From Deltaproteobacteria bacterium (GTDB taxonomy: Bacteria > Desulfobacterota > Syntrophobacteria > BM002): a DNA stretch of 64,000 nt. The translations under genes and the position numbers were made by a program. The stretch spans positions 10,967 through 74,966 of the forward strand of contig JAJDNB010000095.1 in assembly GCA_022340905.1 (NCBI GenBank), in the 5' to 3' direction. A model generated the notes under the pieces. The model was not told the DNA's origin, did no database searches, and was given only the letters and a program-made list of their open reading frames with translations. This document shows positions 1 to 63,905 of the stretch, piece by piece. The stretch's first letter is position 1. Each line of letters starts with the position of its first letter.

Positions 1-1835
1 ACCTCCTGTAATTCTCTGCATCCTGGCTCACCCTCCTTTTTGCGCATCAGCAGAAGTTCCGTATATCCCTGTATAGCTTGGAGGAGGTTGTTGAAGTCAT
101 GAGCAATGCCGCCGGCCAGAGTGCCAACTGCCTCCATTTTCTGAGCGTGAAGGAGTTGGCTTTCCAGATTCTTTCGTTCACTGATATCGCGCAGATTGAT
201 CACACTGCCTACGGGCTTGCCGTCCATGTCACGAAGCACTGCTCCGCTGATACTCACTGGAATGATTTTGCCTTCTTTGGTATATCGACTGCTTTCGATG
301 CCTGAGAAGCTCTCGCCGGTCAAAACTCTTTGGATCATTATTTTGGTCTCTGGCCAATTCTCTTCGGGCACGAATAGGTCCATGGTTTTACCCAAACGTT
401 CACCCAGGGACCAGCCGAAAACTCGGGTGAAGGCGGGGTTGAAATAGACAACCTTACCCTCGATGTCGTAGACGACAACAGGATCAGGATTGGCTTCCAG
501 TACAGTGCGATATTTCTCCTCGCTGTCTCGCAGAGCTTCGATGGCTTGTTTGCGCTCAGTGATGTCGTGAACGATTGAGTACAATAGCTTTTTGCCGTTC
601 AAAATGATGGGTCCGCTGAATACTTCGACATCCACAACCTCGCCTCTGGCCAATCGATGACGGAACAAAAAGTGCTGGCTTTGTTCCGGCTTGGCTCTCT
701 CTATTTCTTGAAAAATCTGTTCTTCGGTAAGCGTATTGATATGAAAAATTTTCTTACTGGTAAGCTCTTTGTGGCTCCAGCCATAGAAAGAACAAGCTGC
801 TGGATTGGCATCTACTATGTCGGCAGTCTCGGGATCGACGAGAAGCATCACCGCATGGTTATTCTGGAAAAGACTCCTGTAGCGCTCTTCGCTTTCACGC
901 AGGGCTTCCTCGGCCTGCTTGCGTTCTGTCACATCTCGGACCACACCTCGAAAACCAGCAGGTTTTCCTGTGGAATCCTTCATCAAGGAAGCAGAGAGTT
1001 CCAGAGTCCTTGTGGTGCCGTCCTTTCTGAAAATGTCATAATCTAAAATCTTTGCCGGTTCTCCGGTCTGATATGTCTTGCTGAAGACTCTATACATTCT
1101 TTTGGCGGTTTCCGGCGTAGTATAGTCCCGGTTGTTCATGCCGATCAGTTCGTCTCGGTCATAGCCTGCAATTCTACATAGGGCGTCATTTGCAAAGGTG
1201 AAATTCCCAGCGAGGTCGACTTCGAAGTAACCTTCCTCTATATTTTCAAGAATATTTTTGTACCGCTCCTCGCTCTTTTGAAGCTCCTCCTCTATCCGTC
1301 TGCGTCCTTCTCTTACCCTCGGCAGTTGCTCATTTGTTTCAGAGAGAGCACCGGTTCTCTCCATAATCTCTCTTTCCAACTCAGCGTGGATCTTCAAAAG
1401 TTGGATCTCCTGTTGCCACTTTGACCCGAGAGCCACAGCTAGCTGCACAATCTCTTCTGGTGTAAAAGGTTTTTTGAGATAGAGCATCTTGTCGTCGGGA
1501 GGAACGGGGGAGACTATCGCTTCAGGAGTGACATCGTTATGGGCAGTGACCACGACGATCTCGATGTTGGGGTCGAGCATGCGGATTTTCCCTGCCGCGC
1601 CCACGCCGTCCTTTTCAGAATTTAATCGGCTGTCAATGAATACCAGGGAGAAGGGGGTACCGTCTTCCGCGGCTGCACGGACAGCTTCAACCGCCTCCCC
1701 ACCTTGGCGGCAGAGGGTTACATCGAATGTGTAGCTAGATGTTGGGGAAGAGAGGAATTCTTCGTAGAGTTCACGAACGTGTTGTTCGTGGTCAACTGCT
1801 AAGACTCGTACAGTGTTGGGTCGGGGCACTGACAT
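1..1835 (-). CDS. Hybrid sensor histidine kinase/response regulator with N-terminal receiver and PAS domains, partial. The C-terminal part lies beyond the window start.
   Basis: Reverse-strand translation from the ATG at 1835 (RBS GAGGA upstream) gives [47 protein letters not shown], a receiver domain, followed by repeated PAS S-box segments. Near the window start it reads [31 protein letters not shown], a HisKA H-box almost identical to that of the kinase at 29180-31291. The ORF track missed it because no stop lies inside the window. Confidence 0.75.
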
Positions 1836-2142
1836 CAGAGGAAGTCCTCTTTTCTTACGAGGAAAGTAAAGCCACTGACGGAAGTACTAATCAATATGCA
1901 AGAAGCTTGCCCGACCCACGGAAATCAAAATTCCAAATAACAAATCCCAAATATCAAACAAGCTCCAATGACAGAACCTCGCAATTCCAAACATTTACAT
2001 CTTTTTCAAAGAAAAGCGCATCTGAAATATGTTTTGGTCATTGAATATTGGAATTTTTAATTTACTGGTAATTTGGTGCTTGGGATTTGGGATTTAAGAG
2101 TATCTATCTATATGACTCATCTCCGATGAGTGATCACACCCC

Positions 2143-2349
2143 TCAAGACCCCCCATAGCCGATCTCTACTTTTTTGCCTTCCACAATGACCGGCACCTTG
2201 CGCACGCCCTTTGAAAATTTCAACATTGCCTCTAGTTTCTCTGGTTCTGCGACAACGTCCACATAGGTAGCACTGTCACCGTAAGCCGACCTGGCTTGAT
2301 TGGTGTAAGGTCAAGTCGATTTACCGAAGATAATAACTTTTTCTGCCAT
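2143..2349 (-). CDS. Glutaredoxin-like selenoprotein, 68 codons, with an in-frame UGA (Sec) at 2311-2313
   Basis: Translation is MAEKVIIFGKST-U-PYTNQARSAYGDSATYVDVVAEPEKLEAMLKFSKGVRKVPVIVEGKKVEIGYGGS. This is the glutaredoxin fold signature (beta1 - redox motif where CPYC becomes UPYT - ... - VP.I - GG). A strong RBS AGGAGGG sits 6 nt before the ATG. A hairpin AAGCC-AGGUC-GGCUU begins 17 nt after the UGA and contains CAGGUCGGC. The ORF track showed only a spurious 64-aa ORF here. Confidence 0.7.
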
Positions 2350-2466
2350 GCCAACCCTCCTGATGAGTTATCTTACGAGATAAAATAACCACAAAGACCA
2401 CGAAGAACACAAAGATTTTCTTTGTGACCTTTGTGCACTTTGTGGTGAAAGAACACCCATTGTCAT

Positions 2467-3858
2467 TCACTCCAACGTAAAAGTTTCTTGGAATTTGGGG
2501 ATGACCACATCCCATCCCAACCTTGTGTTGATTTTTTCTGCCAGTGATGATGAAGCATCGGGTTCACCGTGAACAATAAAGGTCTTTTGGGGAGGACGGT
2601 TGAAACCCATTAACCAAGCCAATATTTCGTTGTAATCTGCGTGGGCTGAGAAGCCGGATATGTTTTCAACCCGTGCCTTGATAGGAACATCTTCCCCGTG
2701 GATTTTCACCCTTGGGTTTCCGTCCAAGATTTTCCTCCCCCTCGTCCCTTCAGCCTGGTGTCCAATGAACAAAATGGTGTCTTTCCTAGAAGGGAGTCGA
2801 TGCCTCAAGTGATGCAAGATACGACCACCGGTGGCCATACCACTGGCGGAAATAATAATGGCATTTCTCTTTATCTCATTGAGCGCTTTGGATTCGTCTC
2901 GATGTCGACAAAACTTTAGCTGTTGCGGTTTTAGGATGGAGGTTCCCCGAATTTCCAAGACCTTCGCTACCAGACCATAACATCCTTTATTGTTTTCAAA
3001 GACAGCTGTTGTGTCGATTGCCATAGGTGAGTCCACGTACACCGGCAAAGAGGGAATCTCCTTGTCCTCCTCTAGCTCTCTTAGAGAGTAGAGCAGCTCC
3101 TGCGTCCGACCCACGGCAAAAGAAGGAATTACTAGCACTCCACCCCTGTCTACGCTGGCATTGATTACGGCTGCGAGATCCTTCTCTGGTGTTTCGTTTT
3201 GGTGCAGCCTGTTGCCGTAGGTTGATTCCAGGATAAGATAGTCGACCTCGAAGGGCTGGACAGGATCGCGAAGGATTGGTCTCGCTGGCCTACCCAGATC
3301 ACCGCTAAAGACGATCCTGCTTGCCCTCCCCTCTTTCATTAATTTGACGTCAACGAAGGAAGAGCCAAGTATGTGTCCTGCGTCCTTAAATTTTACCCGC
3401 AAGCTGTCAGTCAAAAATATGTCCTCACCGTAATGGTATGGCTCAAACTGTGATAGAGCGTTTTCTGCCTCCTCCACTGTATATAGCGGCAGGGCCGGTT
3501 TGTGTTTAGAGAATCCTCTTTTGTTGGCCCAAGTGGCGTCCTCTTCCTGAAGATGGCCTGAGTCGCGCAAAAGAATCTCACACAGGTTGTAGGTGGGGTG
3601 GGTACAATGGACCTTTCCCTTGAAACCCTGTTTACACAGCCGAGGCAGATAGCCAGAGTGATCAATATGAGCGTGGGTAAGAAAAACTCTGTCTAAATCA
3701 GTGGGAGCGATAGGAAAAGGTTCCCAGTTTCTCAACCTATTTTTCTTTAATCCTTGGAAAAGGCCACAATCTAACAGGAGACTGTTGCCGTCGATCTCTA
3801 GAAAAAAACGAGATCCTGTAACCGTACCCGTGGCACCTAAGAATGTTAGTTTTGTCAT
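2467..3858 (-). CDS. MBL-fold beta-CASP RNA-metabolising metallo-hydrolase (RNase J / CPSF-like)
   Basis: HAHIDHSGYLP metallo-beta-lactamase motif, beta-CASP and RMMBL-like C-terminus, length about 460 aa. Start chosen at MTKLTF (3858) because AGGA lies 9 nt upstream. The longer ORF start at 3891 has no RBS. Confidence 0.8.
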   Translation of the reverse strand: MTKLTFLGATGTVTGSRFFLEIDGNSLLLDCGLFQGLKKNRLRNWEPFPIAPTDLDRVFLTHAHIDHSGYLPRLCKQGFKGKVHCTHPTYNLCEILLRDSGHLQEEDATWANKRGFSKHKPALPLYTVEEAENALSQFEPYHYGEDIFLTDSLRVKFKDAGHILGSSFVDVKLMKEGRASRIVFSGDLGRPARPILRDPVQPFEVDYLILESTYGNRLHQNETPEKDLAAVINASVDRGGVLVIPSFAVGRTQELLYSLRELEEDKEIPSLPVYVDSPMAIDTTAVFENNKGCYGLVAKVLEIRGTSILKPQQLKFCRHRDESKALNEIKRNAIIISASGMATGGRILHHLRHRLPSRKDTILFIGHQAEGTRGRKILDGNPRVKIHGEDVPIKARVENISGFSAHADYNEILAWLMGFNRPPQKTFIVHGEPDASSSLAEKINTRLGWDVVIPKFQETFTLE

Positions 3859-3964
3859 CTTAGATCCTGCATTGAAGACACTAGACACCAAGTCTCGAGG
3901 TGTCAGGTGTCAGGGAGGAGAAACAGAAAAGCTGAAACCTGAACTCTGAAACCTTAGCTTATGT

Positions 3965-6728: not shown

Positions 6729-7148
6729 ATGGCAGATGAATTTGAAACTTATGGTGATCGACGCAAGGGCAAGGACAGAAGGGGCGACACTGATAGACGC
6801 TCTGGAAGGGATAGACGTAGTGGTGCTGAGAGAAGAAGTACCAGAGACAGACGGTCTGGCTGGGGAAAGGTGGACGAGGAGAGGTTGCAGGGTGCCCTGA
6901 CTGCGGCGGCCACGGTGGCACATCTGTTCAGCCAACCGTTGACAATAGTAATTGGGCACGTGGATCTACTGTTGTCCCGAGTGGAAGATCAAGCCGCCAG
7001 GAGAAAACTAGAAATAATCAAGGAACAATTGCAATCTTTGAGCATGACATTACAGGACTTGAGAAATCTTAGGCATTACAAGACAGTGGATTTGGATGGC
7101 CTTGTCCTGCTAGACATAGGACTACGAAAGGTTAAGAAGCTTGACTGA
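6729..7148 (+). CDS. HisKA (DHp) domain-only protein with N-terminal Arg-rich DRRSG repeats (Spo0B/ChpT-like phosphotransferase candidate)
   Basis: N-terminus DRRKGKDRRGDTDRRSGRDRRSGAERRSTRDRRSG, a degenerate 7-aa repeat. The core AHLFSQPLTIVIGHVDLL matches the HisKA H-box. No HATPase domain follows. Confidence 0.5.
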   Translation: MADEFETYGDRRKGKDRRGDTDRRSGRDRRSGAERRSTRDRRSGWGKVDEERLQGALTAAATVAHLFSQPLTIVIGHVDLLLSRVEDQAARRKLEIIKEQLQSLSMTLQDLRNLRHYKTVDLDGLVLLDIGLRKVKKLD

Positions 7149-7178
7149 GACTGGGACGCATCAGGAAGAGACACTACT

Positions 7179-7568
7179 TTGCGAGATGCCAAAAAAACAG
7201 AAATACTGTTATGGGACAAACACACAACTGAAAGAGAAGTAGTCGAAGAGATGCTCAGAAACCTCGGCTTTAATGTAACAGCCGTTAGTAGCGAGCATGA
7301 CTGTCTCAGAGAATTTTCTAATCGCAAATTTGATCTGGTAATTTTTGATCAAGGTCTGCCAGATCTAGATGTTAGAGAATTTGTTGATGAGTTGGCCGAG
7401 ATAGATCAAATGACACCAATAGCAATGATGGCAACTTTAGCTGTTGAATTCTATGAGAAAAGATTTGGAGGTTCCAATATTGATTTTCTTATAGTTAAGC
7501 CATTCGAGTTGGTTCAGCTTCAGAAGTTGGTTGAAGAAGCTGTGGAACTTGGCGAGCGACTGAAATGA
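7179..7568 (+). CDS. Stand-alone response-regulator receiver domain protein
   Basis: DLVIFDQGLPDLD (phospho-Asp), PIAMMAT (conserved T/S position), FLIVKPF (conserved Lys). No output domain. Confidence 0.6.
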   Translation: MRDAKKTEILLWDKHTTEREVVEEMLRNLGFNVTAVSSEHDCLREFSNRKFDLVIFDQGLPDLDVREFVDELAEIDQMTPIAMMATLAVEFYEKRFGGSNIDFLIVKPFELVQLQKLVEEAVELGERLK

Positions 7569-61663: not shown

Positions 61664-61882
61664 TTAGATCAGACTTCGAAGGACCGGTTTAATTCTTCTG
61701 ACATCATTTGGCAGTAAGCCTTTGGGTACGTAAAAATTCCCAAGAGATTGCGAGAATTGGTAACGGGCACAAGCCGAATAATCTCCGTGACAATATTTTT
61801 GCAGCAGCTCAAATGCTTGAGATTGTGGATCTATTGTATTCTTATAAAACCAACAATCTCCGTATATTTCACAGCGAGACAT
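61664..61882 (-). CDS. Small Cys-rich hypothetical protein
   Basis: MSRCEIYGDCWFYK ... YCHGDYSACARY, four Cys in a C-x5-C / C-x6-C arrangement. RBS GAGGTGA. Confidence 0.4.
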   Translation of the reverse strand: MSRCEIYGDCWFYKNTIDPQSQAFELLQKYCHGDYSACARYQFSQSLGNFYVPKGLLPNDVRRIKPVLRSLI

Positions 61883-61991
61883 TTTTATCACCTCAATTCA
61901 AGGCTGTCCCTGACCTCAAAATTTCCCAGCTGGAAGCGCGTACATACTCACGCTTTCCTAGTGGTGCCGGCTGATTTTTCTCACTAGACAA

Positions 61992-62140: not shown

Positions 62141-62869
62141 CTAGTCGGGGGTGCTGAGTCTTCTGAGTGCTTTTTTCAATGCGGCGATGTGGACGTCACC
62201 AGCGAAATGAACTGGGCTCTTTCCGTGGATGGGATCCCAACCAGAAGGATCTGCTGAGCAGAAGAACTGGGTTTCAAGTCCAATGCGGAATATGGCATCC
62301 TCGACTGGTAAACCCTCTACCCGTTTAGCTGCATCCCACGTTGCTCCACAAGGGGCACCTCGGATCACCTCGACGCTGGTCACCTTCTCCTCCGCGGTTT
62401 CTACTTCAAACTCTGGAGAACCGAATAATTCCCCGTATTGACCCAGGCCGACCTGCCTGGAAAGACCGCATCAAGTTGGGGGGACAAAAATCCTCTGGCC
62501 TTTCACTTTTTTGCCCGAGGCAACTACTGGGATTTTACTCCTGGCGCAGGCAGCGGCGAGATCGTGCGAGAGGTCAGGATGTTTCAAAAAGTCCAAAACC
62601 AGGTCTGCCTGAATATCTTCGGGTAAATACTCCGAAGTATTATCGAGGATCGGAGGCAAGGGCTCGTCGATAGATATTGTCTCAATGATAAAAAAATCCT
62701 TTCCGTATTTTTTTATGCCCCGTATTTTCTTTTCACCGCTGCCATTCTGTTGAAATACCAAGATTCTTTGAGGGTTAGCAGATTTTAGTGTTTCGCCTTC
62801 CCCGGGAATGAAGCAACCTTTGCACTTCTCTGTGATCACTGATAGCGACCTTTCAGCCAGCGGTGTCAT
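62141..62869 (-). CDS. Cys-rich selenoprotein candidate of about 242 aa, with an in-frame UGA at 62471-62473 joining two ORF-track ORFs
   Basis: ORFs 62471-62869 and 62141-62383 are in the same frame, separated only by TGA. Read-through gives ...RIFVPPT-U-CGLSRQVGLGQYGELFGSPEFEVETAEEKVTSVEV... The hairpin CCAGGC-AGGUCG-GCCUGG starts 14 nt after the UGA and contains CAGGUCGGC. N-terminal CKGC, later APCG and FFCSADP. Start overlaps the upstream PilZ gene stop (ATGA). Confidence 0.65.
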
Positions 62870-63204
62870 TTAAAATCGGTATCATTTAGGAGTCGGGAAA
62901 CAGCATCCGATATAAACTGGCGATCCTCGTCAGACATCTCAACGAAACGGACTCCCATCCCGAGAGCCAAAACCTTACCTGCCCATATCACCTCCGCTGT
63001 GATCTTTAAAACGGCCGATTCGGGAGGTCTAATGGTCAAAGAGACTCGCTCTCCTGGTTCCGGTGTCTCATCGCAGTGGATATAGGCACCGCCAATCCCG
63101 AGATTTCTCAGCTTGGCTTCAATTATACCCCCCGCGCTTTCGATGGTAACAGGCCATCTGATCTCTGCTCTTGGGTAAGTACGCCTGTCTTCAACGGGAA
63201 TCAT
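62866..63204 (-). CDS. PilZ-domain protein
   Basis: RRTYPRAEIRWPV ... NLGIGGAYIH PilZ motifs. Translationally coupled to the selenoprotein gene. Confidence 0.7.
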   Translation of the reverse strand: MIPVEDRRTYPRAEIRWPVTIESAGGIIEAKLRNLGIGGAYIHCDETPEPGERVSLTIRPPESAVLKITAEVIWAGKVLALGMGVRFVEMSDEDRQFISDAVSRLLNDTDFK

Positions 63205-63653: not shown

Positions 63654-63905
63654 CTAGCCTCCTCCGAGAAAGGGAAGGAAGGTAACATTGTCTTTGTTCT
63701 TGAGTACCCTTTCCATGGAGGAAAGCTTGTTGTTTACTGCCACGAGAACGCCATCATCCAGAAATGGCAAATGAGGATAACTTTCCCTTATATAGGATAA
63801 AAGGTCGACGACTCGAGTTTCTCTTGCGAGAGGGACCTGAATCTGGTCTGTTTGAGCACGAGCCCTCTGCAATCCAAGAAATGTCACTGATACGTACATC
63901 GGCAT
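63654..63905 (-). CDS. MoaD/ThiS-family ubiquitin-like sulfur-carrier protein
   Basis: 83 aa ending in the diagnostic C-terminal Gly-Gly (..VTFLPFLGGG), beta-grasp-like pattern. Confidence 0.7.
   Translation of the reverse strand: MPMYVSVTFLGLQRARAQTDQIQVPLARETRVVDLLSYIRESYPHLPFLDDGVLVAVNNKLSSMERVLKNKDNVTFLPFLGGG

Follow-up and report, generated by a model that had tools for sequence, protein, structure and literature searches.

A nonamer shared by two in-frame UGA codons

A stretch of 64,000 nucleotides from an uncultured Desulfobacterota genome, here called the window, contains two in-frame UGA codons that are followed at nearly the same distance by the identical nonamer CAGGTCGGC. This raises the question whether the 9-mer is a SECIS core specific to this organism, which could serve as a cheap probe for further selenoproteins as proposed in a preliminary description, or a part of bacterial SECIS elements of a more general kind. 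Exact matching found the 9-mer twice in the window, both times on the minus strand. At site A, in a UXX-star gene, the TGA is located at 2313-2311 (-) and the 9-mer at 2293-2285, starting at +21 when the U of UGA is counted as +1; the mRNA following this TGA reads UGACCUUACACCAAUCAAGCCAGGUCGGCUUACGG. At site B, in the gene dfsP, the TGA is located at 62473-62471 (-) and the 9-mer at 62455-62447, starting at +19 in the same count; here the mRNA following the TGA reads UGAUGCGGUCUUUCCAGGCAGGUCGGCCUGGG. The coordinates, sequences and offsets described earlier were confirmed to the base. In shuffled versions of the window the 9-mer CAGGTCGGC was found 0.35 times on average, and two or more copies arose in 4 out of 100 cases; the copy number by itself is only marginally unusual. 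The earlier argument that a chance coincidence is unlikely does not hold by count alone. It does hold by placement, and chance is excluded because each copy follows an in-frame UGA codon in a gene of a curated selenoprotein family, a different one at each site.

Both sites fold into hairpins in which the 9-mer supplies the loop and the closing pairs, in agreement with the preliminary description. Hairpin A, AAGCC-AGGUC-GGCUU (2283..2297, minus strand), is supported by both fold and covariation and carries CAGGUCGGC at 2293-2285 with GGUC at +23 to +26. Hairpin B, UCCAGGC-AGGUCG-GCCUGGG (62442..62461, minus strand), carries GGUC at +21 to +24 and folds with -11.8 kcal/mol. The upper stem of hairpin A yields -5.7 kcal/mol in isolation, and -10.3 kcal/mol together with a weakly supported lower helix. 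Compared with shuffled sequences, the hairpins folded in isolation reached z = -3.0 (A) and z = -2.9 (B), and in a context of 44-54 nt the folds of both sites were no more stable than shuffles (z ~0).

Both UGA codons belong to known selenoprotein families

Site B lies in dfsP (62141..62869, minus strand), which encodes a DUF166-family selenoprotein of 242 aa with the motif PPT-U-CG. DfsP scores 341 bits against NCBIfam NF041372 (cutoff 200), aligned over model positions 1-203 of 203 with the Sec position spanned, and matches Pfam DUF166 with E = 6e-45. The DUF166 protein DfsP has been described as a predicted selenoprotein family (PMC13188914). A scan of species-representative genomes provided 57 dfsP loci, all from Desulfobacterota MAGs or isolates, the best relatives being 82-83% identical. 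The Sec codon (62471..62473, minus strand) is TGA in 51 of 56 orthologs and TGC or TGT in the other five. A hairpin is present at the same place in every TGA form and absent from the five Cys forms. Among 47 distinct sequences, 93.6% of the cells of hairpin B are paired, compared with 22-62% when the partner strand is slid, and pair 15-30 is realized as C-G (25), A-U (15) or G-C (5). Pair 16-29 is unpaired in 10 sequences, and some orthologs would need a bulge. Near-invariance in the ungapped alignment is limited to GGCAGG and the distal stem; AGG is kept in 44 of the 51 Sec-type orthologs, and the three loop bases that follow it vary (UCG, UUG, UGG, AUU, ACG, AAG, CUU and GCG).

Site A lies in a gene for a glutaredoxin-like selenoprotein of UXX-star family 1 (2134..2349, minus strand), with the ATG at 2349-2347, two Sec codons and the true stop TGA at 2136-2134. 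UXX-star family 1 is a predicted selenoprotein family with two Sec residues (PMC13188914). The encoded protein has 71 residues, MAEKVIIFGKST-U-PYT...GYGGS-U-GV*, and contains the motifs STUPYT and SUGV*. Its score against NCBIfam NF041114 (cutoff 72) increased from 100 to 109 bits when the U-G-V tail was added, the model then being aligned over positions 1-70 of 70. A metagenome scan with alignment of the protein matches provided 80 orthologous loci; under a TGA=Trp code both Sec positions of these matches, and often the stop as well, are translated as W. The first Sec codon, in the active-site motif U-P-Y-T (2311..2313, minus strand), is TGA in 75 of the 80 loci and a Cys codon (TGC or TGT) in five. 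In the upper helix of hairpin A, 97.5% of the cells are paired among 63 distinct sequences, the next-but-two pair is A-U in 26 and G-C in 21, and the Sec forms share the consensus GC[C/U]-AGGUC-[G/A]GC. The lower helix (CACC/GGUG), with 65% of cells paired, is poorly supported and is not claimed. For the stems of dfsP and of UXX-star site 1, the covariation score was reached by none of 500 shuffles, and slid controls collapse. The alternation of TGA and Cys codons, the curated families and the covarying stems bear out the earlier reading of both UGAs as selenocysteine codons.

Two further Sec codons in the window

The preliminary description treated the two UGA sites as the only ones. Both are Sec codons, but the window contains four, in three selenoproteins. 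Because of the family name UXX-star, the apparent stop of the UXX-star gene was re-read: the region 2145-2134, TGA GGG GTG TGA, corresponds to U-G-V-stop. This second, C-terminal Sec codon (U69; 2143..2145, minus strand) is TGA in all 79 orthologous loci that reach the position, also where site 1 is Cys, and is followed by G-V and then by TGA, TAA or TAG. The fold of the 3' UTR places its SECIS hairpin, ACUCAUC-GGA-GAUGAGU, at 2115..2131 (minus strand), with GG at +22/+23 and without CAGGUCGGC. RNAalifold analysis of 60 orthologs showed compensatory changes in five of six pairs and an invariant loop G, after which comes G or U (CGGUG, CGGAG, AGGUG, AGUUU, CGUUG and others). The two UGAs at the C terminus are 6 nt apart, and the first, at SECIS distance from the hairpin, would be read as Sec, with the second probably too near the hairpin and therefore used for termination.

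The fourth Sec codon is found in the third selenoprotein gene, hgcA (31570..32727, plus strand), whose product scores 452 bits against NCBIfam NF040863 (cutoff 275). A crude bSECIS-style scan flagged the TGA at 31657-31659 (+), which precedes the ORF 31690-32727 by 10 codons in the same frame. Starting from the ATG at 31570, which has a GAGGA ribosome-binding site, hgcA gains an N-terminal extension (MEQK...VEPC-U-GPKT...) that continues as ...QVEPC-U-GPKTVPGG and contains Sec as U30. C-TGA-GP is found in all four orthologous loci examined. Most HgcA proteins have been reported to be selenoproteins with an invariant PCUGP in an N-terminal extension (Haft and Gwadz, preprint 10.1101/2022.07.06.499078). 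Cys-type HgcA homologs have PCCGP aligned to PCUGP, that is, CC in place of C-U. The SECIS hairpin of hgcA, UCCCC-GGU-GGGGA (31673..31685, plus strand), presents G22 G23 U24 as in E. coli fdhF and does not contain CAGGUCGGC. Among the hairpins of the four orthologous loci the loops are GGU, GGG, GGC and GGUCA, and the stem sequences differ.

The shared bases probably contain a common SECIS loop

It is highly probable that CAGGUCGGC forms the apical portion of a genuine bacterial SECIS hairpin at both sites, and that what the two have in common is the (A)GGUC loop together with the C-G pair that closes it. The conservation of the UGAs, the Sec/Cys alternation, the covariation of the stems, the conservation of the loops, the spacing and the independence of reading frame support this directly. 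SECIS stem-loops of this kind, 11-13 nt downstream of the UGA, would be bound by SelB together with Sec-tRNA(Sec). The hairpin would recruit SelB-GTP-Sec-tRNA(Sec) to the ribosome, so that a UGA in the A site would be decoded as Sec rather than stop. By analogy with E. coli and Moorella, we infer that SelB binds the hairpins of the window and that Sec is actually inserted. The functional element would then be the loop (A)GGUC with the closing C-G pair, which would place the GG at +21 to +24, comparable to G22 G23 U24 C25 of fdhF. Because the four hairpins fit the bSECIS model and fdhF shares CAGGUC, the relevant portion of the 9-mer is probably the known SelB-binding loop. The remaining GGC would serve as G+C-rich filler of stem or loop, and its identity between the two sites is presumably for the most part coincidental because its structural roles differ. 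In hairpin A, which has a loop of 5 nt, all three bases belong to the stem (G27-C21, G28-C20 and C29-G19). The loop of hairpin B has 6 nt, the last of them being the first G, and in the dfsP alignment this position (column 25) is free to vary, with column 26 being the conserved closing G. Thus, the 9-mer does not occupy the same structural register in A and B.

The proposal of an organism-specific core did not stand, as the 9-mer is found in the orthologs of many organisms and is missing from two of the four SECIS elements of the window itself, UXX-star site 2 and hgcA. The exact 9-mer occurs at the homologous position in 48 of 75 (64%) UXX-star and in 10 of 51 dfsP orthologs of the Sec type, drawn from numerous metagenomes and MAGs, and UXX-star and dfsP paired at random across organisms would share it in about 1 in 8 cases. 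The observation named beforehand as decisive against the proposal, other selenoprotein genes with a hairpin lacking the core, was made at UXX-star site 2 and hgcA, and also at fdhA of relatives. In three relatives, fdhA is located about 2.5 kb upstream of dfsP and has the hairpin GGCC-GGUCU-GGCC (gene identity from TIGR01591, 853 bits, the L022 copy being the one scanned); the dfsP loops on the same three contigs are AGGUUG, AGGUCG or AGGAUU. Judged from these sequences, the 9-mer appears to be passed on within each gene family in numerous species and to be no signature of the window genome. It most likely represents the standard loop of E. coli type, which many species share.

A different explanation for the nine shared bases would be an extended recognition by the SelB of this lineage, reading C-AGGUC-G and the adjacent G-C and thereby pulling unrelated SECIS elements toward one 9-mer. 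Two of the four SECIS in the window do share all nine bases, and a dfsP clade (L004-L009, L011, L056 and others) keeps the 9-mer. Moreover, loop positions 4-6 of dfsP are clade-dependent, with GGAUU in Desulfobulbaceae-like MAGs, which could reflect co-evolution with SelB. Yet the other two SECIS of the window are conserved without the 9-mer, and the nearest dfsP relatives L001 and L002 (79-82% amino-acid identity) have the synonymous variant CAGGUUGG. The 64% of UXX-star orthologs that carry the 9-mer come from very diverse samples, and the GGC is out of register between hairpins A and B. CAGGTC was found in none of 73 orthologous mRNAs in the region of the second UXX-star SECIS, so CAGGUC is never common to both SECIS of one mRNA in these 73 organisms, and the fdhA and dfsP hairpins of the same MAG also differ. 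An extended recognition is hence considered improbable. If such a preference did exist in this Syntrophobacterales-like lineage, the clade-specific dfsP loops (GGUC, GGAU, GGAC) would track the co-evolution of SelB, and selenoprotein genes in metagenomes could be attributed to lineages by their SECIS loop dialects.

It is less probable still that the 9-mer has no role at the RNA level and reflects coincidence or a protein-coding constraint. The mildly unusual count (4 of 100 shuffles with at least two copies) and the presence of 28 non-SECIS copies in 540 kb of related DNA would be compatible with this, as would the conservation of ARSAY as protein in UXX-star, even in some Cys forms. However, both copies stand at the canonical SECIS distance behind UGAs that align to Cys in homologs, and they are read in different frames, as Q-V-G at site B and as A-R-S-A at site A. 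The loop-closing pair of hairpin A is C-G in 49 sequences versus U-A in 13, so that synonymous third codon positions covary (GCC/GCU for Ala and UCG/UCA for Ser). The Arg codon at UXX-star site 1 is AGG in 73 of 75 Sec forms, whereas the Cys forms have CTG, ATA, CGA or CGG instead. Because AGG accounts for 19% of the Arg codons in the window and is not rare, the argument rests on this contrast between Sec and Cys forms. The Cys forms of dfsP lack QVG as well as the hairpin. Protein coding thus does not explain the 9-mer, because the frames differ and other codons or residues stand in place of AGG in Cys orthologs. A recent copying of the SECIS between the two genes by recombination or gene conversion might account for the nine identical bases, but is scarcely credible, as no likeness extends beyond the 9-mer (flanks AAGC/UUAC versus CAGG/CUGG) and each hairpin is orthologously conserved within its own family in dozens of organisms.

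The 9-mer as a probe and the annotation of the window

The proposed use of the 9-mer as a cheap probe for selenoproteins was assessed. In 540 kb of related loci 87 copies were found; 59 coincide with SECIS sites, counting a second UXX-star copy in L075, and 28 do not. Five of the off-target copies have a TGA 16-22 nt upstream (L015, L023, L031, L034 and L047), and none of the five is in an open reading frame; the probe is specific when combined with the TGA prefix and a frame check. Its sensitivity in its own window is only 50% (two of four sites). A single exact word derived from two SECIS elements, missing half of the sites in the window it came from, is therefore unsafe as a selenoprotein finder. 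The general SECIS reading of the 9-mer was correct; the evidence does not support an organism-specific core that could serve as a probe.

Several minus-strand matches of the 9-mer arise from CCG-CCG-ACC-TGA at the dfsP Sec codon, read in reverse complement. A bSECIS-like scan of the window and all loci returned 131 candidates, which besides the known dfsP and UXX-star SECIS were mostly non-coding noise; the only new true positives were fdhA (three loci) and hgcA. A pair of ORFs joined in the same frame by a TGA (6729..7568, plus strand) was judged to represent two genes, the first for a coiled or HK-like protein and the second for a receiver domain, and neither a redox motif nor a hairpin was found in this pair.

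The main value of these results is for annotation, with two additional Sec codons (UXX-star U69 and HgcA U30) and a corrected start of hgcA. Ordinary gene calling splits UXX-star into fragments, the longest being a 39-aa ORF (2143..2262), splits dfsP into ORFs of 132 and 80 aa, and drops the PCUGP extension of hgcA. A search with Rfam gave no SECIS family at gathering thresholds in the whole window, nor at E up to 10 around both sites; the sole Rfam match, to CRISPR-DR, was judged to be due to chance. As Rfam currently matches none of these SECIS elements, covariance models would be worth seeding, and the SECIS alignments of dfsP, both UXX-star sites and hgcA could be applied for this. No tRNA was found in the window, and selA, selB, selC and selD were not identified among the ORFs screened, which were part of the ORFs of the window.

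Comparison with known SECIS elements and selenoprotein families

The consensus bacterial SECIS model is that of bSECISearch (Zhang and Gladyshev 2005), as far as it is summarized in PMC13188914. According to that summary, the loop has 3-9 nt, with a G at position 1 or 2 and then G or U, the spacing between UGA and loop is 16-37 nt, and the folding energy is -7.5 kcal/mol or lower (PMC13188914). The apical loops of the window hairpins, AGGUC (A), AGGUCG (B), GGA or CGGAG (UXX-star site 2) and GGU (hgcA), all contain the loop G. Loop and upper stem measure 5 nt and 5 bp in A, 6 nt and 7 bp in B, 3 nt and 7 bp at UXX-star site 2, and 3 nt and 5 bp in hgcA, so that all four stems are within the 4-16 bp of the model. 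The spacing is 16 nt in B and 18 nt in the other three. In a context of 44-48 nt the minimum free energies are -13.3 (B), -10.3 (A), -9.9 (UXX-star site 2) and -9.3 kcal/mol (hgcA), all below the threshold. The isolated upper stem of hairpin A, with -5.7 kcal/mol, misses this threshold, but otherwise nothing essential differs from the model. Compensatory changes are found in three pairs for dfsP, two for UXX-star site 1 and five for site 2. Sec/Cys pairs are found in dfsP (51 TGA and 5 Cys), in UXX-star site 1 (75 TGA and 5 Cys) and in hgcA, with C-U aligned to CC.

Common to all four window hairpins are a small apical loop and a GG within +21 to +24, in the form of GGUC at +21 to +24 in dfsP, GGUC at +23 to +26 at UXX-star site 1, GGAG at +22 to +25 at UXX-star site 2 and GGUG at +22 to +25 in hgcA. 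This GG-in-loop rule coincides with the bSECIS consensus already in the literature and, applied alone, is known to lack specificity.

In E. coli fdhF, GGUC is located at +22 to +25. Its sequence TGACACGGCCCATCGGTTGCAGGTCTGCACC, confirmed in 5419 genomes, has the form TGA-N16-GCAGGUCUGC with CAGGUC from +20, and G23, U24 and the 11-nt spacing have been described as determinants of E. coli SECIS function (PMC8659212). The claimed resemblance of the 9-mer to an fdhF-type GGUC loop is thereby substantiated: hairpins A and B both have the GGUC loop, the counterparts of G23 and U24 and a spacing of about 11 nt, and like fdhF they lie directly after an in-frame UGA within the coding region and have a G+C-rich stem. 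The positions are slightly shifted, with CAGGUC starting at +20 in fdhF, +19 in B and +21 in A, and the GG at +22/+23, +21/+22 and +23/+24, respectively. The bulged U (U17) of E. coli fdhF has no counterpart in A or B, the upper stems of which are perfect helices, and the minimum free energy loops of A and B comprise 5-6 nt, whereas fdhF has a GGUC tetraloop closed by A-U. The host genes are also unrelated, and the organism of the window belongs to the Desulfobacterota.

In hgcA the arrangement reported by Haft and Gwadz is reproduced, with VEPC-UGA-GPKT upstream of the usually annotated start and a GG-loop hairpin following it. The loop of its SECIS, GGU or CGGUG, differs from AGGUC, and SECIS loops thus vary within the genome. 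The UXX-star and DfsP proteins of the window score above the curated cutoffs of NF041114 and NF041372 as equivalogs, with Sec at the family positions, two in UXX-star and one in DfsP. They show no difference at the family level and add new sequences, from an uncultured Desulfobacterota genome, to these families. The SECIS elements of the window are thus known biology, new examples of well-known kinds.

A second selenocysteine codon and variant forms of UXX-star

The apparent stop codon of the glutaredoxin-like selenoprotein gene UXX-star (2143-2145, minus strand) is a second Sec codon, reading U-G-V before a TGA stop. It has its own SECIS, the hairpin ACUCAUC-GGA-GAUGAGU in the 3' UTR (2115-2131, minus strand). 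The position is TGA in all 79 orthologous loci that extend to it (79/79), and the stem of the 3'-UTR SECIS covaries among the orthologous loci.

Two of the related loci, L116 and L124, encode Cys (TGT) at the first UXX-star site, yet in both the SECIS position still holds a hairpin, GGCC-CG[A/G]UC-GGCC. Its retention in these Cys forms suggests either that Sec was recently replaced by Cys or that ARSA is constrained at the protein level. Another locus, L075, carries an extra UXX-star copy (L075:1040-1100, plus strand) approximately 500 nt upstream of its main copy; this copy, which is probably truncated, retains the TGA and the CAGGUCGGC hairpin.

A selenoprotein form of HgcA

The mercury-methylation corrinoid protein gene hgcA (31570-32727, plus strand) is the third selenoprotein gene of the window, and its upstream in-frame UGA is the fourth Sec codon. 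The TGA lies within a PCUGP motif (31657-31659, plus strand) and is followed by a hairpin with a GGU loop (31673-31685, plus strand). The usual ORF call starts at GTG 31690 and is thus truncated, leaving out the part with the UGA and PCUGP. Immediately 3' of hgcA is the gene of its ferredoxin partner, hgcB (~32740-33023, plus strand; MGLQYLRDVV...CTLCGMC...), which has Cys (GVGC) where the selenoprotein variant reads GVGU. Further downstream, a small HMA-domain-like ORF (33276-33482) and an ORF similar to heavy-metal P-type ATPases (33588-36041) were assigned by eye, and the whole run resembles a mercury- or metal-related gene cluster.

Neighbourhood of dfsP and antisense matches at its Sec codon

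Upstream of dfsP, the DUF166-family selenoprotein gene, are a PilZ-domain gene (62866-63204) that shares an ATGA overlap with it and, beyond this, a ThiS/MoaD-like gene with a C-terminal GG (63654-63905), both on the minus strand. Downstream lies an ORF for a Cys-rich protein of 75 residues (61664-61891), for which Pfam gave no match. In three Desulfobulbaceae-like or Desulforhopalus contigs, the gene for a Sec formate dehydrogenase alpha subunit, fdhA (DHCARY-U-HSAT; L017:~1-2360, L022:~1-2490, L048:~1-2450, plus strand), is found ~2.5 kb upstream of dfsP with the SECIS GGCC-GGUCU-GGCC, and the pairing may represent a conserved neighbourhood.

The reverse complement of CCG-CCG-ACC-TGA, which encodes P-P-T-U in dfsP, itself includes CAGGTCGGC, and therefore the 9-mer shared by the dfsP and first UXX-star SECIS hairpins, when used as a probe, also finds the opposite strand of several dfsP orthologs, right at their Sec codon (minus strand of L014, L015, L016, L017, L019, L022, and L035). 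Such matches are a curiosity and produce false positives.

A hairpin upstream of UXX-star

Between the gene of a beta-CASP/MBL RNase (2467-3891) and UXX-star, a long imperfect hairpin (2388-2446, minus strand) places three CACAAAG-type 9-nt repeats opposite their inverted copies, with a folding energy of -28.7 kcal/mol (z = -6.9). It is followed by UUAUUUUAU and is probably an intrinsic terminator. For such a terminator, it is unusually long and repeat-structured.
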